Positions 1-51,661 of a stretch of 64,000 bases of DNA are shown here, one piece after another. Position 1 is the first letter of the stretch. The number at the start of each line of letters is the position of its first letter. Where the stretch lies: NCBI RefSeq assembly GCF_055900595.2, contig NZ_CM148325.1; one strand, written 5' to 3'. The translations under genes and the position numbers were made by a program. The notes beneath the pieces are model-generated. The model was not told where the DNA came from and made no database searches. It saw only the letters and a list, made by a program, of their open reading frames with translations.

Positions 1-301
1 TGAATTCTGATTCTTAGTTTCAGCAATGTAACGTCCATCACCAGACATATGATCAGGAAGTCGATAATCTTTTTTGCCGCTAGCACTTGGGATTTTTACC
101 GTATTTTTAGGTAGTCCAGTTAATTCAGAAGAATTTTTCTCACCCGCCTTACCTAAATCTGTACAGGCTTTTCCTCCCTTTAATCCTAAAGGATCGATCC
201 AGCCTAACGGATTCGGCGCATACTGATAAAGATTCAGTCCCCCCGCCAGCCCTATCGGGTCTGGCTGCGTAAACCGCCCGCAGTCCGGATCGTAGTACCT
301 G
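1..301 (-). pseudogene. Orphan rhs C-terminal fragment (5'-truncated, no start codon); runs off the window start
   Basis: Minus-strand translation from ~301 gives [41 protein letters not shown] followed by a divergent tail ([16 protein letters not shown]...). An in-frame stop lies immediately upstream and there is no ATG. Confidence 0.6.
188..301. repeat. Direct repeat copy 1 (~113 bp, ~85% identical to 1074..1185): conserved Rhs core/CT junction
   Basis: Aligned by eye: ggatcgatcc...gattcagtccccccgccagccctatcgggtc...ccggatcgtagtacctg is shared with the main rhs junction. Confidence 0.7.
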
Positions 302-409
302 AGTAAGTATACCCACGCTCAAGATGCATCTCTTAAAAATAAAGAAGCAGCGCAGTGTTTATTACCTTCTGCGATTACACTCGCTGCATGCAACTCTGAT
401 GCTTCACGA

Positions 410-736
410 CTATTTATTTAAACCGGACATATTAATACCTATATACGATAATTCATCTAAATCTTGATGCCTATTTGTAGGTTCTAAATAACGTGCAGGA
501 AATAAATCCCTGGCAGCATGATAATATAAAATAGAGATAATATCCTTTTGTATTTCCTTCAATGCCTCTCTATTTTCACAACCAGTAATTTCATAAACCT
601 CCTGATCGCTACAATTTTCTAATACATAATTTATGCACGATTCATAAATCATCAAACCGTCTTCTGATACATCAATGTGAAATTGATTCACTGTTCCTGA
701 AGGATTTCTATGTTCCAATAAATACATTTCTCTCAC
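410..736 (-). CDS. Putative Rhs immunity protein (RhsI), 108 aa, cognate to the CT toxin of the upstream rhs
   Basis: Starts 3 nt after the rhs stop on the same strand with a GTG start; AT-rich like the rhs tip. This is the canonical position for an immunity gene. Confidence 0.6.
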   Translation of the reverse strand: MREMYLLEHRNPSGTVNQFHIDVSEDGLMIYESCINYVLENCSDQEVYEITGCENREALKEIQKDIISILYYHAARDLFPARYLEPTNRHQDLDELSYIGINMSGLNK

Positions 737-739
737 CTA

Positions 740-3700
740 TTAAAATCTTACATAATCACTAAATATATCTCTAAATTCATCAAGTTCACTTTGAGTTGGT
801 CTTTCCCATCGGTCAGTATTTCTATTCATTCGATGTTGGATATTTTTCCTAGAGATATCCCTCATAGATGTGACAATTTCAGAACCATCTTTTTCAATTA
901 TATGTGCTCTGCCATTTGGTCCCAGTACAACCCACCGCCCATCTGATTGCTTTAATATATCGCTAGAACGCGCATTTTGAAGATCATTAATAACAGCACC
1001 AATAGGTCGACCTTCACGATGCCGTTGTAAAGCATGACTACTTTTCTTCAAAGTAGCACACATCTGTCCCAACGGATCGATCCAACTTAATGGATTCGGT
1101 GCATATTGATAGAGATTCAGTCCCCCCGCCAGCCCTATCGGGTCCGTTACCATGAACCGCCCGACATCCGGATCATAGTACCTGTGCAGATTGTAATGCA
1201 GCCCTGTTTCCCTGTCGAGGTACTGTCCCTGGTAGCGCAGGTTCTGCTCCACCCCGCCGTGGTCCTTCTCCTGTATCGTGTTACCCCAGACCTGATACCC
1301 CGTCTCCCACACGATTTTCCCGTCACTGTCCGTCATCTCTTCCGGCGCACCGTTCACATCCGTGTGAAAATACAGTATCCGGTTCGGTCCCTCTTTGCCC
1401 GCCTTATCCACCCGCGCCAGCGGTTCATAACTCCCCTGGTCACTGTAGATATACAGGCTGCCTGTTCCCTCCGGCCTGCTCTCCTGCGCCAGCCGCATTC
1501 CGTCCCATAAAAATGTCGTCCGGTTATACGGTTTACCGTCAGGGCTGATGTGCTGTTTTTCCGTCCGCCTCCCCAGCGCATCGTACACATACCGGTACGT
1601 TCCCCGCGCTGTCGTCACTTCCACCATCCGGTGTTCCGCATCATAACGGTAACTCTGCGCTCCGCTCCGGCCCTGCTTTTCCACCGTCCGGCCAAATTCG
1701 TCGTAACGGTAGTGCACACCACGGTAAGACATCAGCCGGTTGAACGGCACAACGCTGTTTTCTGCCGTGGCCCTTTCCCCCGCACGCCGCCCCAGCAGGT
1801 TTCCCGCCGCGTCGTACTGCCAGCTCGCCAGATACCCCTCATCCTCCGAGCGGCACGCCGTGATGCGCCCCGTGGGGTCGTAGAAGTAATCCGTTTCCCC
1901 CCGCCGGCTGTGCCGCGTCTTCAGCAGTTCATCCTCGCCGCTGTAGCTGTACTGCCGGTCCGTGAACGTCTCCGGTACCACCCCGCGCATCCCGCTGTAT
2001 GTCTCCCTGCGCTTCAGCCGCCCGGCGGTGTCGTAAAGCTGCCGCGTGCTCAGTCGCCCCTGACTTCTGAGCACCTCCCGGTGCAGGGCGTCACGTGTGA
2101 ACTCGCTGATGACCTCCCGGTCCAGATTTATCTGCTGGAGATGGCCGCTGCCGTAGTACAGATGGCGCTGCGTTCTGCCGTCCGGAAAGGTGGTGGCTGT
2201 CCGGTTGCCCAGTTCATCGTACTGATGGGTCAGGACGCCCTGCGCCGTCTCCTCGGTCAGCATCCGCCCCAGTCTGTCGTAACTGAAGCGGATAACTTCC
2301 GGCGCGTCAGTTTCGTGCCGCTGGCGGCGGATTTCCAGTAGCTGGTCTGCCGCATCATGGACGTATTCCGTATGGCTATCGGCTGTCTCCTTTGCCGTGA
2401 GCCGGCCCGCCGCATCGCGCGCCAGCCGGTGACGGATTTCACCGCCCCGGTCCCCGGTGAACACCACTTCCGTGACCGCGTTCAGCGCGTTGTAACGGTA
2501 CGCCTGGCGGCAGCCGTCCGGATTTATCTGCTCCGCCAGACGGTCCAGCACATCATGGCGGAACCGGTAGCTTTCTCCGTTCTCGTTCGTGAGCGTGACC
2601 AGACGCCCGTAAGCATCGTACCCGAACGCCGTCCTGCGCCCCGTCGCGTCTGTCCGGCTGCGCACCCGGCCCTGCCCGTCCCGCTGCCAGCGCGTTATCC
2701 TCCCCATCGGGCTGGTGTACTTCACCAGCCTGCCCGCCGCGTCCGACTGGTAATTCACCGTGCGGCCGTCCGCCAGTATCACCTCCGTCAGATGACCGCT
2801 GTCGTCATACCCGTAGCGCGTGCTGTGGCTCTGCGCGTCTGTCATTCTGATAAGCCGCGTGCGTTCGTCGTAGAACCAGGCCGTCTGCGAGCCGGAACAG
2901 TCCGTGTGCCGCATGAGCTGCCCGTCTTCGTTCCACTGAAGGTATTTATTCCCCCCACGGGCATCGGTTATCTGCACCACCTGGCCGTGGCGGTCATACT
3001 GATACCGGGTGTTCTGCTGCAGCGGGTCGGTCACCGCAAGAAGATTGCCGCGTTCATCGTACTCACAGCACCAGCTGTTCCCCGCCGCGTCCACCTCCGT
3101 TTCCGGCTGGTGCCACACCGGGTGCCACTGTGTCTGTGCCACCCGCCCCAGCGGGTCGTGCGTCTCCGTGATATGCCCCTGCCGGTCATACACATAGCGC
3201 CATTTGCCGCCCTGCGCATCGCTCATTCCCAGTAACAGCCGTTCTTCGTCGCTCCAGCGGAACGTCGTCACCTGCCCGGCTTCGTCCTGGTACGCCGTCA
3301 CCTGGTTCTGCGCATCCCACTGATGATAACGCGTGCGCCCCAGCCCGTCCGTCACGCACAGCCTGCGTGCCGCCAGGCTCCACGCCAGCCGGTACTGTTC
3401 ACCGCTGTCCGTGTGGTGCCCCGTCACCCGCCACGCTGCGTCATCCGGGCCTTCATACCAGCCCCACTGGTAATAATACCCTTCGCCGCCCGGCTGGCGG
3501 TGCAGGGTCATGCAGTGGTTTTCGTCGTAAGCAAACTCACGCAGCAGGTGCCCCGTGCTGTCGTACACGCCGTTCAGGTCGCCGGCCTCGTCATAGCGGT
3601 AACGACGCAGCAGTAAAGGAGCCGTCTCAGGGAAATGCTGATAAATCTGTGTCACCCGCCGGGGATGCGCCGCCAGTTCATAATGCAGACGAATGCACGG

Positions 3701-5371
3701 ACGCTGCTGTTCACCGCTGATTTGCGTGATGCGCCCCAGCTCGTCGTAGTACAGATTCAGACAGTTGCTGTTGCGGTCGCCCAGCATTTTCAGCCGCTGG
3801 CGCTGCGGGTGATGCGGGTCGGCTTCAAACAGAAAAAACTGCCCGTCATCGCTGCTGATAAGCCAGTGCCCCTGCTCACCCCGCCGTACTGCCAGTCCTT
3901 CGCCGGGGCTGTAAAACCCGCTCCCCGGCAGCACGGCCTCCATATCCAGGCGTCGTCCCATGCCCGACACAAAGGTCATACAGTTTTCGTCAGCAGTACC
4001 CGGCGTGCGCTCGAGGCTGACTTCATACATCACGCTCCAGCCCTGCCCGAACATCCCTTCCGTGCGGTCGTCACGACTGCTGTACACGCGCTGCCAGTCC
4101 AGCGGAAAGTGGCCCGGCAGACTGAAATCGAAGTCATCGTCATCCGCCAGATATTTGGCTCCGGTGGCGGCATTGACCGGATGCGGAAGGGCACTGATGG
4201 CCTTCTGCGTCATCACCCCCATCCCGACACTGGCAGCAAAACAGGCGATTTTAGAAAGCATTTTGCCCGGGCGAAGAAACATCAGCGCCACGGTTGCCAC
4301 CAGGGTTATCTGCGACCTGCCGCTTCTGATATCCCTGACCACCAGTAACGGACCGCCAATGCGGACATCCGGTGACAAAAACGCCCCGTTCCCCGGCTCA
4401 TTCACCACCCTGGCCTCGCAGGTACAGCGTGCCCCGCTGCGTGCCGCCGGCTGGCTGTTGATACGCACATCCCGCGCGCCTTCCGCGATATATTCCGCTG
4501 CGGGCGGTTCATCATCGCCTTTGAACAGATTACTGATGCTGCCAATAACCGCATTCACTCCCTGAAAGGCGGTTTCCAGCATACCGCCCGGACTCAACAG
4601 GTTAAGGGCCGTTCCCAGGGGGTCATCCAGAAAGGCGGCTTTTTTTTGTGCGAGAAACTGCGTCAGTGAGGAGGGATGTTTATGGCAGTCGATTTTATCG
4701 TCAGGGGTCGGGGTGGAGCCCGGGGCCGCACTGGCCACGGTGGGCTGCCATAGTTCCGACACAAAATGTGTCACGCCATCCACCATTTCAGAACGCCCTT
4801 CTTCCGTACTGAGCTGGTCGTGCAGCGCCCGGGACATCAGCACAGGCCCTGTCACCGGGTTAACCGCCAGGGCTATGGCCCCCGCCATTTCCAGATATTC
4901 CCCGGCCACATCCAGAAACGTTCTGGCATCCTCCTGACGCTGCGCTTCTTCCTGTTCCGCCTTCGCCTTCGCCTGCGCCTCCTGCGCCTCAATGTCCTGC
5001 CGTGATGCCGCAGTCGCCGCGGCCCGCGCGGCAGGTTTGCTGTTGATCCATGTGTCGCCAGAGCCGGTGAGGATGTAACCTTCAATCTGAGGCGGGAAAA
5101 GCCAGTTCGCCAGTTGCTCACTTTCCCTACTGATTCGGTCATTCCAGCCCTGATACGACATAAATACCGCTGTTGCTATACCGATCGCTAAAATGGTTGA
5201 GCAGCCCAGCGTTGCCACTTCAACTCCGCCCAGCGCCGCCATGGTTCCGACAACCAGAACATCCACCAGGGCTGTGGCGGCAACCTCTACAACTGCCCCC
5301 AGCACATCTGCTATAAACGACGTATGCAGCAGGGCATCACCCTGCCTTGCTGCCCAGAATGCCTCTTCCAT
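740..5371 (-). CDS. prePAAR/PAAR-Rhs type VI secretion effector, 1543 aa
   Basis: N-terminus carries an AARxxDxxxH prePAAR motif (AARQGDALLH, residues 7-16) and hydrophobic segments flanking a PAAR-like region. Long YD/Rhs repeat core follows. Core ends with [26 protein letters not shown], then a 108-aa C-terminal tip. Confidence 0.9.
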   Translation of the reverse strand: MEEAFWAARQGDALLHTSFIADVLGAVVEVAATALVDVLVVGTMAALGGVEVATLGCSTILAIGIATAVFMSYQGWNDRISRESEQLANWLFPPQIEGYILTGSGDTWINSKPAARAAATAASRQDIEAQEAQAKAKAEQEEAQRQEDARTFLDVAGEYLEMAGAIALAVNPVTGPVLMSRALHDQLSTEEGRSEMVDGVTHFVSELWQPTVASAAPGSTPTPDDKIDCHKHPSSLTQFLAQKKAAFLDDPLGTALNLLSPGGMLETAFQGVNAVIGSISNLFKGDDEPPAAEYIAEGARDVRINSQPAARSGARCTCEARVVNEPGNGAFLSPDVRIGGPLLVVRDIRSGRSQITLVATVALMFLRPGKMLSKIACFAASVGMGVMTQKAISALPHPVNAATGAKYLADDDDFDFSLPGHFPLDWQRVYSSRDDRTEGMFGQGWSVMYEVSLERTPGTADENCMTFVSGMGRRLDMEAVLPGSGFYSPGEGLAVRRGEQGHWLISSDDGQFFLFEADPHHPQRQRLKMLGDRNSNCLNLYYDELGRITQISGEQQRPCIRLHYELAAHPRRVTQIYQHFPETAPLLLRRYRYDEAGDLNGVYDSTGHLLREFAYDENHCMTLHRQPGGEGYYYQWGWYEGPDDAAWRVTGHHTDSGEQYRLAWSLAARRLCVTDGLGRTRYHQWDAQNQVTAYQDEAGQVTTFRWSDEERLLLGMSDAQGGKWRYVYDRQGHITETHDPLGRVAQTQWHPVWHQPETEVDAAGNSWCCEYDERGNLLAVTDPLQQNTRYQYDRHGQVVQITDARGGNKYLQWNEDGQLMRHTDCSGSQTAWFYDERTRLIRMTDAQSHSTRYGYDDSGHLTEVILADGRTVNYQSDAAGRLVKYTSPMGRITRWQRDGQGRVRSRTDATGRRTAFGYDAYGRLVTLTNENGESYRFRHDVLDRLAEQINPDGCRQAYRYNALNAVTEVVFTGDRGGEIRHRLARDAAGRLTAKETADSHTEYVHDAADQLLEIRRQRHETDAPEVIRFSYDRLGRMLTEETAQGVLTHQYDELGNRTATTFPDGRTQRHLYYGSGHLQQINLDREVISEFTRDALHREVLRSQGRLSTRQLYDTAGRLKRRETYSGMRGVVPETFTDRQYSYSGEDELLKTRHSRRGETDYFYDPTGRITACRSEDEGYLASWQYDAAGNLLGRRAGERATAENSVVPFNRLMSYRGVHYRYDEFGRTVEKQGRSGAQSYRYDAEHRMVEVTTARGTYRYVYDALGRRTEKQHISPDGKPYNRTTFLWDGMRLAQESRPEGTGSLYIYSDQGSYEPLARVDKAGKEGPNRILYFHTDVNGAPEEMTDSDGKIVWETGYQVWGNTIQEKDHGGVEQNLRYQGQYLDRETGLHYNLHRYYDPDVGRFMVTDPIGLAGGLNLYQYAPNPLSWIDPLGQMCATLKKSSHALQRHREGRPIGAVINDLQNARSSDILKQSDGRWVVLGPNGRAHIIEKDGSEIVTSMRDISRKNIQHRMNRNTDRWERPTQSELDEFRDIFSDYVRF
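743..1066 (-). other. Rhs C-terminal toxin domain (108 aa after the DPLG junction), activity unknown
   Basis: Sequence after IDPLG: QMCATLKKSSHALQRHREGRPIGAVINDLQ...DEFRDIFSDYVRF. Composition drops sharply to AT-rich relative to the GC-rich core. Confidence 0.6.
1074..1185. repeat. Direct repeat copy 2 (Rhs core/CT junction within the full-length rhs)
   Basis: ~85% identical to 188..301. Confidence 0.7.
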
Positions 5372-5389
5372 GTCCCGTTCCCTGTGTGA

Positions 5390-5842
5390 TTAATTCGTCC
5401 CGGCTTCCTGCCGTATCCTGAAGCGCAGATTCTTTTTAATTTCAGCCCAGCGCGTCATATCTGCCGGGGTCAGCGGTGTGGTTCTGGCGTAGGTGAAGGC
5501 CATCATGACCCGCTCACCCGGCAACACAAATGCCACCTGACACTGGTACACCTGCTCGTTACCCCGGAGAAACTGACTCTGTATTTCCAGCCCTTCTTCA
5601 CCGTCATTAATCCCTACCCGTGTTACCTGAACGGGCGTGTAGTGAAGATCCTTTACCTGTTTCTCCAGTTTTTTCATTTGCTGTTCAATCTGGGAGGCTA
5701 ATTCGTCTCCTTCCTGCATCTGGCCCCGGCTGATAATGAGTGCAGCGTCGGGATCGCTGAGACGCAGCATATTAATCGTACTGTCCTGAATAATATTCCC
5801 GGGGAAAGTTACAACAGTTTCATTGAGATAATACTCCGTCAT
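5390..5842 (-). CDS. DUF1795/EagR-family chaperone for the prePAAR-Rhs effector, 150 aa
   Basis: Sits between vgrG and rhs on the same strand, 18 bp upstream of the rhs start; size and N-terminal pattern (MTEYYLNETVVTFPG) fit the Eag family. Confidence 0.65.
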   Translation of the reverse strand: MTEYYLNETVVTFPGNIIQDSTINMLRLSDPDAALIISRGQMQEGDELASQIEQQMKKLEKQVKDLHYTPVQVTRVGINDGEEGLEIQSQFLRGNEQVYQCQVAFVLPGERVMMAFTYARTTPLTPADMTRWAEIKKNLRFRIRQEAGTN

Positions 5843-5892
5843 AATGGTATGAGTCCTTGTTAATTAATAAATTATTTAATGATGGTTTTTAT

Positions 5893-7887
5893 TTATTTTT
5901 TAGTCATGAAGGTGACGTCTATTGCCAACTGAAGGGCTGTTTTCTCCGATGTTCCAGGCGGAGGTATATCTGCCGCTCTGTCATTCATATTTAAATCAAG
6001 CTGCCCTGATTGTGTATTTATCTTTCCATTTTCCGTTGCGGTAATATTAAAATTCTTACAGGTTATATTAAATATTCCGTCACTGGTCATTTGCAGGATA
6101 GTTTCTCCGCAGCTAAGAATAATGGAATCTCCCGCAGCAAGGCGTAAATTCTGTACGGCCTGAATCGTTTTATTTCGTCCGGCAAGGGAGGTATCATCCG
6201 TCTGGACTGTTAGAGAACGTTTCTCACCAATAATCGCAGTTTCTGTTTTATCAATGACTTTAAGGCGATTATTGCCCACCCAGTGGCTTTCATTATTATT
6301 TACTTCAATGCGTTGATCTTTCTCGGCATGCAACCAGATTTCTTCTCCGCCAGTTTTATCCTCAAAACGCAAGGCGTTAGCATTGGTCGGGCCGCCGCCG
6401 ATAGTGTGGCTGTAAAACCCGCTTTGCGTCGCTGCGCCCGGTAGTCCCCACGGTGGCATGGTGTCCTGATTGTAGGTACGCCCAACGATTATCGGTAAAT
6501 CCGGATCACCGTTTTTGAAATCCACCAGTACTTCCTGACCAATGCGCGGGATCTGAATGCCACCGAATCCTTTACCCGCCCACGGATAACTGACACGGAC
6601 CCAGCAGGAACTGTTTTCATCATTCTTACCGTAACGATCCCAGCCAAACTGAACTTTCACCCGGCCATATTTATCTGTCCAGATTTCCTGTCCCGTCGGG
6701 CCGGTCACGATGGCGCTCTGCGGGCCTTTAGTATGGGGTTTGCTCAGGGTTCGCTGCGGGCGGTAAACTTCGCTGGTGGGATGCAGTTCAAAGCTGGTTG
6801 AGTAAGAGAAATGCTGCTCCTGGCCGCTGTGTTGCGCATTGTCCTGTATAAATAGCGTGGTCTGAACCAGCAGATATTCCCGGTTCACTTCGGCTGTCGG
6901 ATAGTTTTCCAGGGTGAAGGTAAAACCTGTCATCAGGGTACGAATATTGCCGCTGCCCTGTACCCGACTACCGGGGCTACACTGTTCTTCCATGCGGATG
7001 CGTGTCAGCATTTCACCTTCACTCTTTGTGAAGTAGTCTCCCGGCCATTCGTAGTGCTCATATTCAGCAAGGCCAGTTTCACGCGGATTAGCCACGGTGC
7101 TCTTGAGCAGTGAACGCGGCTTCATAAAGTCGAAATCATTTAGTACCCACTGTCCGCTGCGCAGGCTTTCATTTGCTGTGATGGTATGGATAAATTCCTT
7201 GTCCAGTTTCAGCCCTTTCTGGTAATAACACACCAGTGGCGAATCTGCGCACGCCTTGTGGACATTAATGGCATCAGCCAGCACTAACGTGTGACTGTTC
7301 TCGTTGTGCTCAAACCACCAGTAGATACCCCACTCCTGCATCAGGCGCTGAATAAAATCGAAATCTGTTTCACCGTACTGCACCTGCCAGGCGCGAGTCG
7401 GATAATTTTCCACCAGTCGTTTTTCCACTGGCCAGGGGTACTCATCCAGTACCTCATCCAGGATCTCCACCACGTTTTTATTTTGAAACGCTTTGTAGTC
7501 ACTAGTGTGGGTCAGTATTTTTAACCACGGTTCAATCCGCAGTTCATACACCACCGAACGTCCTTGATGACCAGCCACGCGTGCCGCCGTCACCAGCCCG
7601 CTGATATAACGTTTTCCGCCGCCATCCAATTCGATATTGACGCACAGATCTTTGCCCACCATCGGTTTGAGCTGCAGGTTGGCTGCGGGGGAAACATAGC
7701 CCAGGTTCAGGATGTCAGGAGTTTTTAATTTAATAGAATAAGTAAATAGTTCCCCTACTGTTTCTGTCCCCCCTAAGCTTGCAAACAGTAACATTCCATC
7801 AGGAACTGCGCTGCCGCTCAAAGTCACGTTATGTGTACCCGATCCAGTTAGTGCGCCGGATGGATAATCTGTAGCTGCAAAACTCAT
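5893..7887 (-). CDS. vgrG: VgrG type VI secretion spike protein, 664 aa
   Basis: gp27/gp5-like hallmark segments ([62 protein letters not shown]) with a C-terminal beta-helix-like repeat region; 3' end is AT-rich. Confidence 0.9.
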
Positions 7888-42997: not shown

Positions 42998-43999
42998 ATG
43001 AGTAAAGTTGGTATTAACGGTTTTGGTCGTATCGGTCGACTGGTGTTGCGTCGATTACTTGAAGTCAAAAGTAACATAGACATTGTCGCTATTAATGATC
43101 TCACTTCCCCAAAAATTCTCGCCTACCTGCTGAAACATGATTCAAACTACGGACCGTTCCCCTGGAGCGTTGATTTTACGGAAGATTCACTTATCGTTGA
43201 TGGAAAAAGTATCGCGGTTTACGCCGAAAAAGAGGCTAAAAATATTCCATGGAAAGCGAAAGGCGCAGAAATCATTGTCGAATGTACTGGCTTTTATACC
43301 TCCGCCGAGAAATCGCAGGCGCACCTTGATGCTGGTGCGAAGAAGGTGTTGATTTCCGCCCCTGCCGGTGAAATGAAAACCATCGTTTATAACGTCAATG
43401 ACGACACACTGGATAGCAACGACACCATTGTTTCCGTGGCGTCATGCACCACTAACTGTCTTGCACCGATGGCCAAAGCCTTGCACGACAGTTTCGGAAT
43501 AGAAGTCGGCACGATGACGACCATTCATGCCTATACTGGCACCCAGTCACTGGTGGATGGCCCGCGAGGTAAAGATCTACGCGCTTCACGTGCAGCGGCA
43601 GAAAATATCATTCCCCACACTACAGGCGCGGCAAAAGCCATTGGTCTGGTGATCCCAGAACTGAGCGGCAAACTGAAAGGTCATGCGCAACGCGTACCCG
43701 TGAAAACAGGTTCGGTGACTGAACTGGTGTCTATTCTTGGAAAAAAAGTGACTGCCGAAGAGGTGAACAACGCGCTTAAAAACGCGACAAACAATAACGA
43801 GTCATTTGGTTATACCGATGAAGAAATAGTCTCTTCTGATATCATTGGCAGCCATTTCGGGTCGGTGTTTGATGCCACGCAAACCGAAATTACCACCGTG
43901 GGCGATTTACAGCTGGTGAAAACGGTCGCCTGGTATGATAACGAATATGGCTTCGTCACGCAGCTTATTCGCACCCTCGAAAAATTCGCTAAACTCTGA
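42998..43999 (+). CDS. gapC: Glyceraldehyde-3-phosphate dehydrogenase C, intact 333-aa frame
   Basis: NAD-binding [10 protein letters not shown], catalytic [10 protein letters not shown]-terminal WYDNEYGF; uninterrupted ORF. Confidence 0.85.
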
Positions 44000-45673: not shown

Positions 45674-46474
45674 TCAACGTAGCGAACGACTTTCCATCGC
45701 CTCGATGAGCACCGCATCGTGTTTCAGCGTTTGCCATGCCTGGATGACTTCTGCCGGAAAATCAACGTGAACGATAAAATCTCGCCCGCGTGGACCGTAG
45801 CCATCGCTATCATCGCGTAAACGTGGCAGCTCGCCAGTGAGTAGTGAGAGATAACGCTCAACCGCCCATAATCCTTCTAACTGGTTAATAAAGATTACAC
45901 TGTCTTCGTTATTTCCCAACTGAGGAACGAATCCGGGATAACTTAACCAACGAGGTGCGTCTGGATTGTCACCGGTAATACGACGGAACGTCGCCATTGT
46001 GCGCCGCTGCATGGTGGGGTCCTGAACAACGATAGCCGTATGAACTCTTTCTACGGCCTGATTCAATAGCGCGATGCTAAAGCGTGCGTTTTCACCGCAG
46101 TTTGTTGACTGGTCTTCAATCCAGATTTTTTCATGCGGAATGTGCCAGAACTGATGAGCGATATCCGCCAGGATGGTAGCTTCTGCTCTGCCAGTGGTGC
46201 GGATAGTGTTGTAGTGCGGATGCTGTGCGATGGCGCTATACAAAAAAGTTGTCGAGTGACCGATACCACCACTAATCAGTAGAGGAATTTGCTGATCGCG
46301 GGCAATCTTACATGCCGCATCGATAGTCGGCATAACCGCATTGCCTGCAAGGATCACGCAATCGGCCTGATACGGCACCTCACCGGAGAAATCATCCTGC
46401 GCCAGCCACTGACCGATAACATTTATGGCATCTATGGTTGCCGGCGAAAGCGTCGGAAACGGGGTAATGTTCAT
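45674..46474 (-). CDS. ydcF: DUF218-domain protein YdcF, 266 aa
   Basis: Matches K-12 YdcF length and sequence. Confidence 0.8.
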
Positions 46475-46863
46475 GGTTCCTCCTTATCGTTCCCTTAAGA
46501 ATACTGCGTGAGATAATAATGAGAAGCGGAGCACTCTGAAAGGAAGATGATGCTTTTTCTATCGCGCCATCGCGAACCAGACACTGGTTTTAGTCATACT
46601 GTATTTGCGGAGAAACTGTTGATAAAACATCAATAACATAATGTTGTATCATTTTTAAATGATAGATAATCTGGTGTGATATTTATATAATATTCATTCT
46701 TATATTTCTCAATCAAGGGGAACATTTGCAACACGCTCATTAGTGGTAATTCCTTAAATTTTAATTGAATAATATCTGCTCTCAGCTATAAACTACTATC
46801 TGTCTATGGTGCCGAATTACCATTTTTATTCATCAACACAATGCTATATGTCGAGAAACATAC

Positions 46864-47358
46864 ATGGAAAAAATATTTCAACTTTTAGAAACCGCCTGGC
46901 CTGCCGTAAAAGCAACAGGACTTACAGGTTGCGTAACCGCTCCAGAAACTGAAGATAACCTTCTTTTATTTGAGGATAAATACGCGACACATATTCCAAA
47001 AGACTATCGGCAGTTATTATCTCATTTTGGCGCATGTCATTTTGCCGATCCTCAAATTTATACTTTGAATGATCTGGACAGATATTACCCTCTATTTTTT
47101 CAACAATGGGAAGAGTATAAAAAAGAATATCCATCATTGAACAACATTGATCCTTTTCCTGTTGGCAGTTTTGGCGACGGGAGTGTCGCTTTTCTTGACC
47201 GCAACAGCCTAAAAATTTATATTCTAATTCATGATTTTGGTATATTTACCGATGATGTTGGTGATTTCCCTTGTGAGTTATGCTTTGAAAATTTTGGTGA
47301 GTTAGTGGAAATGCAAGTTGAAATGATTCTTTATTTACAGCAATATCATGTATCATGA
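46864..47358 (+). CDS. Hypothetical protein, 164 aa; possible SMI1/KNR4 (SUKH-1)-like immunity protein
   Basis: AT-rich ORF with SUKH-like patterns (IPKDYRQLLSHFGACHF and VGSFGDGSVAFLD); family assignment is from motif recollection only. Confidence 0.45.
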   Translation: MEKIFQLLETAWPAVKATGLTGCVTAPETEDNLLLFEDKYATHIPKDYRQLLSHFGACHFADPQIYTLNDLDRYYPLFFQQWEEYKKEYPSLNNIDPFPVGSFGDGSVAFLDRNSLKIYILIHDFGIFTDDVGDFPCELCFENFGELVEMQVEMILYLQQYHVS

Positions 47359-47395
47359 ATAATAAAATTATCACTCATGTTCTTACTGAAAAAAA

Positions 47396-47656
47396 GTGAA
47401 TTCTATAGCAGAGAAATATTGTAAAATGTATAATCTTAATAGCTCGTTAGCATACCAAATCACGGCTATTAAATTTCTTCCTGATGGTATGAAATCATTC
47501 GGCCTTGATGTTCCATTATGGATGGTCGTCAGAGATGTTAACGGTTGGGATGATATGGAAATTACGATTTTTATTTGTGACAAAAATAGTGAAGTTCTTT
47601 GTTGCAGTAATATTTGGTATCCAGTATATCGTCCTCATCAAGCAGATTTGTTATAA
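47396..47656 (+). CDS. Hypothetical small protein, 86 aa
   Basis: ORF in the same AT-rich islet, followed by a terminator hairpin; no recognisable domain. Confidence 0.25.
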   Translation: MNSIAEKYCKMYNLNSSLAYQITAIKFLPDGMKSFGLDVPLWMVVRDVNGWDDMEITIFICDKNSEVLCCSNIWYPVYRPHQADLL

Positions 47657-47701
47657 GCACGTAAGGAGTACCGCCCTTGCTATTTTTCAGAATTCATAAA
47701 G

Positions 47702-47735
47702 AAAAAACCCGGCGCTAAATGCTTACCGGGTTTTA
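47702..47735. terminator. Bidirectional rho-independent terminator downstream of hrpA
   Basis: aaaaaacccggcgctaaatgcttaccgggtttt: GC stem flanked by an A-run and a T-run. Confidence 0.55.
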
Positions 47736-47758
47736 GATTTATCAGGCAAATAGCAGCG

Positions 47759-50700
47759 TTAACCGCTAATCTGCTCCATCGCCTGCAAAATACGCTTATC
47801 TGAAATCGGATAAGGCGTACCAAGTTGTTGAGCGAAGTAACTAACGCGCAGTTCTTCTATCATCCAACGGATCTCTTTCACATCCTCATCCTCACGACGT
47901 GCGGGCGGCAGTTTGTTGATCCATTGCTGCCACGCCTGCTGGACGTTTTCAACTTTCAGCATCTGAGCACGGTCACGGTGCGGGTCAACCGCCAGTTTTT
48001 CCAGACGCTTTTCAATCGCCTGCAAATAACGCAGCGTGTCGCCCAGCCGTTTGAAGCCATTACCAGTGACAAAACCGCGATACACCAGCCCACCCATCTG
48101 CGCTTTAATGTCAGAAAGCCCCAGCGCCATGGTCATATCCACCCGTCCTTTCAGGCGTTTGTTGATATTGAACACTGCCGTAAGGATTTGCTCGACCTGC
48201 TTCGCAATATCCACCACCGTGTCGTTCAGTTCAGCGCGGACTTTTTCATGAAGCGCAGCAAAGCCTTCTTCCGTCCAGACCGGGCCGCCCGCCTCATCAA
48301 TCAATTTATCAACACCGCAGGAGATGCAGTCGTCAATGAGATCCAGCACTTTACCGTACGGGTTAAAGTAGAGACCCAGCTTCGCTTTGTTCGGCAGTTT
48401 CTCATGCAGATATTTAATTGGCGACGGAATGTTCAGCAACAGCAAGCGACGCAAACCACGCCACATAGCCTGCTGTTGTTCCTGCGGGTTATCAAAAAGC
48501 TTAATCGCTACGCTGTCACGCTCATCCACCAGCGCAGGCCAGGCCTTCACTTTGTAGTTGCCACGTTTCTGCTCGTAGTGATCCGGTAAATTACCGAAGC
48601 TCCAGATATGTAACCCGCTTTGCTCAATACCATCATCGGCAACGGCGGAAAGCGTTTCCTGCACTTTGCCTTTCAGGGCGTCTTTCAGATCCTGTAATGA
48701 GCGCCCTTCTTTTAGCTTCTTATTTTTGTCGTCCACCACGCGGAAGGTGATTTTCAGGTGATCGGGCACCTGCTCCCAGTGCCAGTCTTCGCGGTCAACG
48801 GTAACGCCGGTCATCCGCCGTAGCTCGCGCTCAAGGCTGTCGAGCAACGGCAGTTCCAGCGGCGTGACGCGACCTAAAAACGCTTCGGCGTAGTTTGGCG
48901 CGGGCACAAAATTACGCCGTACCGGTTTCGGCAACGATTTGATTAGAGCAATCACCAGTTCACGGCGCAGGCCGGGGATCTGCCATTCAAACCCGCTTTC
49001 CTCAACCTGGTTAAGTAACGGCAGCGGAATATGCACGGTCACACCGTCAGCATCCGCCCCCGGCTCAAACTGATAGCTTAAACGCAGCTTGAGATTACCC
49101 TGATGCCAAAAGTTCGGGTAATCCAGCTTGCTGATTTTTTCCGCCCCTTCTTTGATCAACATGCTCTTTTCAAAGTTGAGCAAATCAGGCGTTTCGCGGC
49201 TGACTTTTTTCCACCAACTATCAAAGTGACGTGCAGAGATCACATCATGGCTGATGCGCTGGTCGTAAAACTCAAACAACGTTTCGTCATCCACCAGAAT
49301 ATCGCGGCGACGTGATTTGTGTTCCAGTTCTTCCACTTCTGCCCGTAGTTTCAGGTTTTCACGGAAGAATGCGTGACGCGTCTGCCAGTCACCTTCCACC
49401 AGCGCGTGGCGAATAAAAAGTTCACGACACAGCGCAGGATCAATCTGGCTGTAGTTGACCTTACGCGCAGCAACAATCGGCAACCCGTAAACGGTGACTT
49501 TTTCAGTTGCCATCACCGCGCCCTGCGCCCGTTCCCAGTGCGGTTCGCTGTAGGAGCGTTTAATCAAATGCTGGGCAACTGGCTCTACCCATTCCGGATC
49601 GATACGTGCCGCAATGCGCCCCCACAGGCGGCTGGTTTCTACCAGTTCCGCCACCATTGCCCATTTCGGCGGCTTCTTGAATAAACCAGAACCGGGGAAG
49701 ATGGAGAAACGCGCGTTACGTGCGCCGGTATATTCCTGTTTATCGGCATCTTTCATGCCGATATGCGAAAGCAAACCTGTCAGTAAGGCGATGTGAATTT
49801 CGCGATACTCCGCCGGTTCGCTGTTAACCGGAATGCCAAGTTCTTTCACCACCTGGCGCAACTGGGTGTAGATATCCTGCCATTCGCGCACGCGCAGATA
49901 GTTAAGGTAATCGGTACGGCACAGGCGACGGAAGGCGTTTGAAGAGAGCGCCTTTTGCTGCTCGCCGAGATAATTCCACAGATTTACAAACGCCAGGAAG
50001 TCGGATTCTTTATCGTGAAAGCGACGATGTTTTTCGTCCGATGCCTGCTGCTTGTCCATTGGCCGCTCACGCGGGTCCTGAATAGAGAGCGCGGAAGTGA
50101 TAATCATCGCCTCACGCACGCAGCCATGTTTCTGCGCTTCCAGCACCATTCGCGCCAGACGAGGATCGACTGGCAGTTGCGAGAGCTGGCGACCGAGCGG
50201 CGTCAGTTTATAGGCGCTGGCCTGTTCATCAGTGGTGATCGCGCCCAGCTCTTCGAGCAGACGCACGCCATCCTGGATATTGCGTTTATCCGGCGCTTCT
50301 ACAAACGGGAACGCAGCGATATCGCCCAGCCCCAGCGCGGTCATCTGCAAAATAACCGAGGCCAGGTTGGTACGCAGAATCTCCGGATCGGTAAATTCCG
50401 GGCGCGAGAGGAAATCGTCTTCGGAATAAAGACGAATGCAGATCCCTTCTGACACACGACCACAGCGGCCTTTACGCTGATTAGCTGAAGCCTGCGAAAT
50501 GGGCTCAATCGGCAGACGCTGCACTTTGGTGCGATAGCTGTAGCGGCTGATACGCGCCGTACCTGGGTCGATAACGTATTTAATCCCCGGCACAGTCAGC
50601 GAGGTTTCCGCGACGTTAGTCGCCAGCACAATGCGCCGTCCGCTGTGCGACTGGAAGACGCGGTTCTGCTCGCTGTTCGAAAGCCGTGCATAAAGCGGAA

Positions 50701-51661
50701 GAATTTCCGTATGGCGTAAGTTCAGCTTGTTCAGCGCATCGGCGGTATCGCGAATTTCTCGCTCGCCGCTCATAAAAATCAGAATGTCGCCAGGGCTTTC
50801 CTGGCTCAGTTCGTCTACGGCATCGAAAATCGCCTGCAACTGGTCGCGCTCGGTGTCATCAGCTTCTTCAACAATCGGGCGATAGCGCACCTCCACCGGA
50901 TAGGTACGACCGGAGACTTCGATAATCGGCGCATTATTAAAGTGGCGCGAAAAGCGTTCCGGGTCGATAGTCGCGGAAGTGATAATGATTTTTAGGTCAG
51001 GACGCCGCGGCAGCAACTCTTTCAAATAACCGAGGAGAAAATCGATATTCAGGCTGCGTTCGTGCGCTTCGTCAATAATGATGGTGTCGTACTGCATCAG
51101 CAGGCGGTCTTGCTGGATCTCCGCCAGCAGGATACCGTCGGTCATCAGCTTGACCATCGTGTTATCACTTACGTGATCGCTGAAACGCACTTTATACCCG
51201 ATGCAACCGCCCGGCTCCGTTTTCAGCTCTTCCGCAATACGGTTCGCCACCGTTCGTGCCGCCAGACGACGCGGCTGGGTGTGGCCGATCAGCCCTTTAA
51301 TCCCGCGGCCCAGTTCCATACAGATTTTCGGTAACTGAGTCGTTTTACCGGAACCCGTTTCCCCGGCGACGATCACCACCTGGTGATCACGGATTGCTTC
51401 GAGAATGTCCTGCTTTTTCTGACTAACCGGCAAATTGTCCGGATAAGTGATTTCCGGTCGTGCTGCTTCACGCAGCAGGACTTTCCCTGCCGCCTGGTCA
51501 ATCTCTTTCGCCATCTCCTGGAAAATGGCCTGTTGTGCATCAGGATTTTTAACCTTCTTCACGCCGTGCAGACGGCGGGAAAAACGCAGTCTGTCACGCA
51601 GCATCAGCGAATCCAACCGTTGCTGCAAGGCCGTAAAGGTCAATTTTTGTTGTTCTGTCAT
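47759..51661 (-). CDS. hrpA: ATP-dependent RNA helicase HrpA (DEAH-box), 1300 aa
   Basis: Helicase motifs (GETGSGKTTQLP, DEAHER); length matches K-12 HrpA. Confidence 0.95.
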   Translation of the reverse strand: MTEQQKLTFTALQQRLDSLMLRDRLRFSRRLHGVKKVKNPDAQQAIFQEMAKEIDQAAGKVLLREAARPEITYPDNLPVSQKKQDILEAIRDHQVVIVAGETGSGKTTQLPKICMELGRGIKGLIGHTQPRRLAARTVANRIAEELKTEPGGCIGYKVRFSDHVSDNTMVKLMTDGILLAEIQQDRLLMQYDTIIIDEAHERSLNIDFLLGYLKELLPRRPDLKIIITSATIDPERFSRHFNNAPIIEVSGRTYPVEVRYRPIVEEADDTERDQLQAIFDAVDELSQESPGDILIFMSGEREIRDTADALNKLNLRHTEILPLYARLSNSEQNRVFQSHSGRRIVLATNVAETSLTVPGIKYVIDPGTARISRYSYRTKVQRLPIEPISQASANQRKGRCGRVSEGICIRLYSEDDFLSRPEFTDPEILRTNLASVILQMTALGLGDIAAFPFVEAPDKRNIQDGVRLLEELGAITTDEQASAYKLTPLGRQLSQLPVDPRLARMVLEAQKHGCVREAMIITSALSIQDPRERPMDKQQASDEKHRRFHDKESDFLAFVNLWNYLGEQQKALSSNAFRRLCRTDYLNYLRVREWQDIYTQLRQVVKELGIPVNSEPAEYREIHIALLTGLLSHIGMKDADKQEYTGARNARFSIFPGSGLFKKPPKWAMVAELVETSRLWGRIAARIDPEWVEPVAQHLIKRSYSEPHWERAQGAVMATEKVTVYGLPIVAARKVNYSQIDPALCRELFIRHALVEGDWQTRHAFFRENLKLRAEVEELEHKSRRRDILVDDETLFEFYDQRISHDVISARHFDSWWKKVSRETPDLLNFEKSMLIKEGAEKISKLDYPNFWHQGNLKLRLSYQFEPGADADGVTVHIPLPLLNQVEESGFEWQIPGLRRELVIALIKSLPKPVRRNFVPAPNYAEAFLGRVTPLELPLLDSLERELRRMTGVTVDREDWHWEQVPDHLKITFRVVDDKNKKLKEGRSLQDLKDALKGKVQETLSAVADDGIEQSGLHIWSFGNLPDHYEQKRGNYKVKAWPALVDERDSVAIKLFDNPQEQQQAMWRGLRRLLLLNIPSPIKYLHEKLPNKAKLGLYFNPYGKVLDLIDDCISCGVDKLIDEAGGPVWTEEGFAALHEKVRAELNDTVVDIAKQVEQILTAVFNINKRLKGRVDMTMALGLSDIKAQMGGLVYRGFVTGNGFKRLGDTLRYLQAIEKRLEKLAVDPHRDRAQMLKVENVQQAWQQWINKLPPARREDEDVKEIRWMIEELRVSYFAQQLGTPYPISDKRILQAMEQISG

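Follow-up and report, generated by a model that had tools for sequence, protein, structure and literature searches.

The region described here lies in a 64,000-nucleotide stretch of contig NZ_CM148325.1 (RefSeq assembly GCF_055900595.2), hereafter the window, in which 1284 bp separate ydcF (45674-46474, minus strand) from hrpA (47759-51661, minus strand). GC content in this gap is 0.29-0.39 compared with ~0.5 in the flanks, and the islet proper, a segment of 1151 bp, has 34.1% GC against 49.4% in the whole window, in agreement with the initial annotation of the stretch as AT-rich. The features of the gap are as follows.

46545..47695, no strand: accessory islet, delimited by alignment with MC4100 and CB209 and by GC content
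46590..46667, minus strand: 3' remnant (pseudogene) of a 125-aa gene, recognised by the end of its translation and given in RefSeq as 'incomplete, missing N-terminus'
46663..46691, plus strand: candidate sigma-70-like promoter (TAGATA-17-TATAAT), the best match upstream of the SUKH gene
46724..46728, no strand: ATTTG microhomology, with its second copy at 47609-47613; the two bound the deletion in DUF2262-only genomes
46864..47358, plus strand: intact SUKH-1 (SMI1/KNR4) family gene, 164 aa
47355..47656, plus strand: orf2 pseudogene, a 14-codon stub (47355-47399) followed by 85 codons in another frame
47389..47395, plus strand: A7 homopolymer, site of a 1-bp deletion; CB209 has AAAACAAA here
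47667..47695, no strand: right 'frame' of the islet, common to the O157-type cassette, E. fergusonii and the DUF2262 states, not to K-12
47696..47742, no strand: bidirectional intrinsic-terminator hairpin of hrpA, conserved in K-12 and outside the islet

The 164-aa protein is named 'SMI1/KNR4 family protein' in RefSeq (WP_032302975.1) and matches the Pfam profiles SUKH_6 (4e-7, 31 bits), SMI1_KNR4 (1.4e-5) and SUKH_5 (1e-4) over residues 26-130. Its AlphaFold (AF2) model, with a pLDDT of 88.1 and a pTM of 0.84, has the alpha+beta SUKH fold. The best Foldseek matches of this model were Knr4, BF1740, YobK and 2icg, and its structural neighbours comprise YobK, Lin2918, Knr4, BF1740, FBXO3 and Syd. 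Structural-match figures were 13.2 for Lin2918 (2icg), 12.3 for PSPTO_5518, 11.8 for Knr4 and 10.9 for both BF1740 and FBXO3, with 8.4, 6.9 and 6.3 for the type VI secretion (T6SS) immunity proteins Tdi1, Atu4351 and RhsPI, respectively; the closest structural matches are YobK and 2icg, which are immunity-type bacterial SUKH-1 proteins. Across a 16-sequence alignment F36, P45 and P99 are invariant and E30, E37, Y48, R49, G56, F78, F98, G101 and G106 nearly so, and the motifs FE.KY...P..YR.LL and FP(I/V)G..GDGS are kept across relatives. Sequence, fold and motif evidence thus place the protein in the SUKH-1 family. The initial annotation had proposed this affiliation from sequence patterns, and both the profile search (SUKH_6 at 4e-7) and the fit of the model to SUKH structures bear it out, with the ORF intact wherever the islet is present.

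Searches against NCBIfam and PADLOC returned no model match for either the 164-aa protein or the product of orf2, and with PADLOC blank for both proteins an anti-phage defence system was rejected as a candidate. A lipoprotein was rejected as well: although residues 20-23 (L-T-G-C) look like a lipobox, the stretch before them is charged and modelled as a helix, and the cysteine is not conserved in relatives.

Both same-strand ORFs reported initially (164 aa, 46864-47358; 86 aa, 47396-47656) do exist, but the 86-aa ORF, which begins with GTG, is not a gene in its own right but the rest, read out of frame, of a 99-aa gene, orf2. In the CB209 allele, the common type, orf2 is intact and its start overlaps the stop codon of the SUKH gene (ATGA). 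In the window a 1-bp deletion in the A-run leaves a stub of 14 codons (MNNKIITHVLTEKK and a stop). E. fergusonii and two complete, mutually independent genomes share this frameshift, which is therefore genuine rather than a sequencing error; an in-frame variant of the window-type orf2 (TEKKV) was also found in a metagenome (P0037). No match to the orf2 product was obtained in Pfam, NCBIfam, PADLOC, PHROGs or a PDB sequence search, and no homologues were found outside Escherichia. Its single-sequence AlphaFold model, at a pLDDT of only 50, shows one helix followed by four strands, with no significant fold match in Foldseek.

Downstream of both ORFs, the hairpin at 47696-47742, preceded by an A-run and followed by a T-run, folds on either strand, with energies of -16.6 (plus) and -18.2 kcal/mol (minus) and z ~ -3. 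The ORFs had been described as ending at a strong bidirectional terminator, and in this respect the hairpin is real; it lies outside the islet, however, and is kept in K-12, which identifies it as the terminator of hrpA rather than as a part of the islet. It would also end SUKH-orf2 transcripts. A second hairpin at 47661-47680, overlapping the right frame, is not significant (-7.3 kcal/mol, z -1.0). The sole Rfam match was sub-threshold and fell on the terminator, and a non-coding RNA was accordingly rejected. The SUKH gene is preceded by 320 bp of AT-rich non-coding sequence and by the gene remnant on the opposite strand. Promoter-like sites number 6 in the region against 6.4 in shuffled sequences, so that the best match at 46663-46691 is no evidence of function. 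The Shine-Dalgarno sequence of the SUKH gene is weak.

Comparison of the site among 5,426 complete E. coli genomes revealed four states: the K-12 spacer in 4,641, an unrelated O157:H7-type cassette in 587, the full-length SUKH islet in 185 (~3%) and a DUF2262 gene only in five, such that 96.6% of complete genomes are without the SUKH islet. The initial annotation took the K-12 gap to be of similar size, and the ORFs to be possibly conserved there but unannotated. Neither expectation held. In MC4100, the K-12 derivative with which the comparison was made, the gap measures 271 bp; the islet is absent from K-12, where alignment with MC4100 and CB209 shows an unrelated spacer of ~128-138 bp instead, and the region is already annotated in RefSeq, the NCBI pipeline having called the gene. 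Modules found at the site in other genomes include the following.

L003 6046-7734 and L004 6046-7456, minus strand: O157-type cassette, at the same site in O157:H7 and other E. coli
L062 5914-6771 (E. fergusonii) and L066 2617-3474 (E. coli MFDS1022581): 285-aa DUF7021/DUF2262 gene

The O157:H7-type cassette consists of three or four minus-strand genes encoding proteins of 125, 143, 112 and 141 aa, none of which matched Pfam or NCBIfam; one weak PHROG match is to a family of unknown function. It is enclosed by the same left (46545-46642) and right (47667-47695) frame as the SUKH islet, the left ~98 bp of the islet being common to both. The remnant at 46590-46667 belongs with this shared DNA, as its translation ends in ...DVLSTVSPQIQYD and a stop, identical to the end of the 125-aa protein of locus L004, where the gene is intact in an O157:H7-type cassette. 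At the orthologous site of E. fergusonii the fullest version reads ydcF, SUKH, orf2, DUF7021/DUF2262 gene, hrpA, with the 285-aa DUF7021/DUF2262 gene on the minus strand beside SUKH-orf2. Compared with this version, the window state is without a 1086-bp DUF2262 segment, the junction reading ...TTATAAGCAC directly followed by GTAAGG... The DUF2262-only state of E. coli is a deletion derivative that has lost SUKH and most of orf2: its sequence is continuous to window position 46728 and picks up again at 47609, with ATTTG at both ends of the deletion. E. coli strain 100117, which is of the window type, carries an IS1 between orf2 and the hrpA terminator (L064 1800-2497), and its SUKH gene is intact.

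We conclude that the ydcF-hrpA gap is a variable spot holding small accessory modules, namely SUKH-orf2, the DUF7021/DUF2262 gene and the four O157-type genes of unknown function. The islet borders are without terminal inverted or direct repeats and no recombinase, integrase or transposase is encoded within it, for which reason a mobile element was rejected and the locus is better described as a composite of small modules lost piecemeal. A phage origin was rejected as no phage matched the islet. A plasmid origin was rejected too, the single true match in the plasmid collection being a Subdoligranulum record at 37% identity; an E. coli 'plasmid' match proved to be in truth a 4.9-Mb chromosome. 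A more far-reaching proposal, in which the gap would serve Escherichia as a dedicated place of exchange for small conflict-gene modules, moved between species through recombination of the core genes on either side, and SUKH-orf2 an 'antidote-first' pair with the 99-aa ORFan as a new toxin, is one to which we give little credence.

The flanking genes differ in their affinities. The window ydcF is E. coli-like and 76% identical to that of E. fergusonii (69-87% in 300-bp bins), while hrpA is 97.8% identical to E. fergusonii hrpA and ~93% identical to the hrpA of 5,394 of 5,418 E. coli genomes. From ~46.4 kb through the islet, identity to E. fergusonii is 95-99.7% in 300-bp bins (99.6% for SUKH), and it is still 97-99% near 51 kb, where the available E. 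fergusonii sequence ends; against K-12, CB209 and O157 the identity of the same stretch falls to 83-95%. The jump in identity at the ydcF/islet border shows that the window lineage carries an E. fergusonii-like recombinant tract with a breakpoint there. This tract, of inter-species origin, extends over at least 4.8 kb from a left breakpoint near 46400-46475, and window positions 47659-51270 within it represent most of hrpA. The CB209-type allele of the islet is ~94% identical to that of the window and adjoins an E. coli-like hrpA. As judged from these identities, the islet entered the lineage of the window together with hrpA by homologous recombination, and E. fergusonii would be the more likely donor.

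Several further differences from K-12 were seen across the window. Average identity over positions 15681-62392 is only ~95-97% in 1-kb bins, which is low for E. coli and suggests that the strain belongs to a divergent Escherichia lineage. The hicAB toxin-antitoxin locus at ~25985-26221 (minus strand) is degraded, with ~440 bp of the K-12 sequence (hicA and the start of hicB) missing, and in a near-identical genome only a partial hicB pseudogene is annotated. The gap (gapC) gene at 42998-43999 (plus strand) is intact, whereas the copy in the K-12 derivative is frameshifted and has an internal stop. In the autotransporter gene at 60710-64000, identity to the K-12 copy drops to 84% and then to 67-69%; this gene is intact in the near-identical genome and an IS-interrupted pseudogene in K-12.

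Close relatives of the SUKH protein are few. An exhaustive HMMER search through 1.84 billion representative proteins yielded 29 cluster matches at E <= 1e-3, the best full-length match being 41% identical, and a word-indexed search recovered Escherichia copies only. When one genome per species was scanned with a 5-sequence alignment, 43 loci with 33-46% identity were found, nearly all in Firmicutes (Paenibacillus, Lachnoanaerobaculum, Catonella, Mogibacterium, Veillonella and Clostridiales MAGs), with one in a Pseudomonadales MAG and one in a Campylobacter MAG; none of the 43 was in Enterobacterales. This preponderance of Firmicutes, combined with the 34% GC of the islet, points to acquisition from a low-GC donor. 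Some relatives are accompanied by immunity-type genes: an array of SMI1_KNR4, DUF4303, Imm68 and WGR surrounds those in Paenibacillus (L008/L028), Imm42 and Imm10 lie near another (L014), and DUF6881 and DUF6966 near a third (L012). Many others are solitary amid housekeeping genes such as those for RlmD and PepQ. Among 48 proteins neighbouring relatives were housekeeping enzymes, a Fic protein and DUFs, with no toxin recognised by Pfam or NCBIfam, although single rare toxin domains could escape the Pfam tally of the 20 commonest families; nor was a counterpart of orf2 found adjoining the relatives.

The window also carries a T6SS effector locus at 1-7881 (minus strand), with genes for VgrG (~5887-7881), a DcrB-related protein (5384-5836) and an RHS-core protein of 1541 aa (740-5365). 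These are accompanied by a small gene of putative immunity function (410-727) and by orphan Rhs/toxin fragments at 1-306, and just past window position 1 the near-identical genome has a SUKH-4 immunity gene. None of the proteins of this locus, 40 kb away, is related to the islet SUKH protein, immunity proteins of the same strain included, and the possibility that the latter is their paralogue was rejected.

Allele comparison gives some indication of the constraint acting on the islet. Of the 495 positions of the SUKH gene, 22 differ between the window and CB209, which changes 12 amino acids; the dN/dS values are 0.39 for SUKH, 0.22 for orf2, 0.05 for ydcF and 0.03 for hrpA. The SUKH ORF is free of stops and frameshifts in three alleles up to 4.4% apart at the DNA level; the CB209 protein was seen on at least 1000 contigs and the exact window protein on 408, so that more than 1,400 contigs in all carry the gene. 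By these measures the SUKH ORF is a real gene under weak constraint, which fits an arms-race gene or one drifting toward loss. The islet as a whole is visibly decaying, given the orf2 frameshift here, the SUKH-orf2 deletion in DUF2262-only genomes and the dN/dS of 0.39 for SUKH.

We suggest that a short piece of accessory DNA was acquired horizontally and has since partly decayed to give the islet, and that the SUKH-1 gene, the only one in it that is clearly functional, most likely provides orphan immunity against a non-self toxin, a reading that we consider reasonably probable. Neither the window nor the CB209-type allele nor E. fergusonii has a toxin gene adjoining the SUKH gene. The context that defines a cognate immunity gene is therefore missing, which makes orphan immunity the most likely role and the term 'orphan', already used in the initial annotation, an apt one. 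Isolated SUKH genes were proposed to give immunity to non-self toxins in the founding SUKH paper (PMC3113570), and the presence of some relatives in immunity-gene arrays counts in favour of this role. The SUKH-1 protein, acting in the cytoplasm, would bind and block the C-terminal domain of a polymorphic toxin (Rhs/T6SS, CDI or LXG), and its carrier would be protected from toxin injected by competing bacteria while having no toxin of its own. That the gene is expressed and that its product neutralises a toxin, whichever this may be, are inferences. Counted against orphan immunity are the facts that no cognate toxin is known and none adjoins the gene here or most of its relatives, that many Firmicutes relatives sit amid housekeeping genes, that the locus has promoter-like sites at chance level, a weak Shine-Dalgarno sequence and visible decay, and that H-NS typically silences foreign DNA rich in AT in E. 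coli, and also that SUKH proteins with non-immunity roles exist, such as Syd and Knr4.

The signs of decay could also mean that the islet is a functionless relic, with a silenced and slowly degenerating SUKH gene hitch-hiking with hrpA alleles via homologous recombination and bringing no benefit. Consistent with a relic are the frameshift of orf2 in both the window and E. fergusonii, the remnant of the 125-aa gene at the left edge, the microhomology deletion that took out SUKH and orf2 in other genomes, the absence of the islet from most complete E. coli genomes, its movement with the recombinant hrpA tract and the raised dN/dS of SUKH. We nevertheless consider this explanation unlikely, with the 164-aa ORF intact in three alleles despite their divergence, its dN/dS still below 1, and the CB209-type allele, known from at least 1000 contigs, retaining both genes intact. 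A non-immunity cellular role for the SUKH protein, for instance in binding or regulating a host protein, has precedents in E. coli Syd with SecY and in yeast Knr4; Knr4, FBXO3 and Syd are among the structural neighbours of the model, and most Firmicutes relatives are single genes amid housekeeping genes. We find such a role improbable, as a strain-specific, AT-rich, patchily distributed and easily lost gene is a better fit to a conflict gene, and the structures closest to the model, YobK and 2icg, are of the immunity type.

The arrangement of the two ORFs invites comparison with toxin-antitoxin modules, orf2 being a small intracellular toxin and SUKH its antidote, so that the frameshift would amount to loss of the toxin with the antidote left behind. 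As in many type II toxin-antitoxin operons, the CB209 genes overlap by ATGA with the larger SUKH gene first; the downstream gene has been inactivated while SUKH was kept intact, and the one-helix, four-strand layout of the low-confidence orf2 model is also known in small RNase toxins. Despite the ATGA overlap, however, orf2 does not belong to a recognisable toxin family as a type II toxin would, it has neither a homologue outside Escherichia nor a structure match, and its model is unreliable. The SUKH relatives lack an orf2-like companion, and in polymorphic-toxin loci the toxin precedes the immunity gene, not the reverse. We therefore regard a module of this kind as very improbable.

Returning to orphan immunity, the nearest characterised protein is YobK of Bacillus subtilis (PDB 2prv), which serves as SUKH-1 antitoxin/immunity protein to the LXG toxin YobL and whose gene directly adjoins yobL (PMC8321402). 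The window gene differs in having no toxin neighbour, and sequence identity to YobK is only ~13%. RhsPI, the immunity protein of Vibrio RhsP (PDB 8bd1), and the T6SS immunity proteins Tdi1/Atu4351 are structurally far less similar than YobK, and their genes adjoin their effectors, unlike that of the window. Syd, the E. coli SUKH-2 protein, is encoded by a conserved core gene and has a SecY-related role, whereas the window gene is accessory and its SUKH-1 product has no detectable sequence similarity to Syd. In genomic setting the islet resembles the acquired interbacterial defence (AID) clusters of gut Bacteroidales and a putative T6SS/CDI immunity islet of Salmonella Typhi, in which immunity-type genes without a cognate toxin are strain-variable, horizontally acquired and proposed to be protective against toxins of other bacteria (bioRxiv 10.1101/471110; PMC7400221): it likewise holds a toxin-less, immunity-type gene that varies between strains and was acquired horizontally. 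Those systems, however, are many-gene arrays (14 genes in S. Typhi), the AID clusters being located on mobile elements, while in the window islet a single immunity gene is recognisable, and recombinase and repeats are lacking. Unlike AID clusters, it appears to have spread via homologous recombination of the flanking core genes.

The practical weight of the finding is modest, as the SUKH gene is already annotated to family level, rare and uncharacterised, and resides in a decaying locus. If protection is indeed its function, the islet would exemplify orphan immunity in E. coli, with a gene that has crossed a phylum boundary. This gene would then have been passed between Escherichia species by ordinary recombination, which bears on how gut bacteria collect defences against one another.
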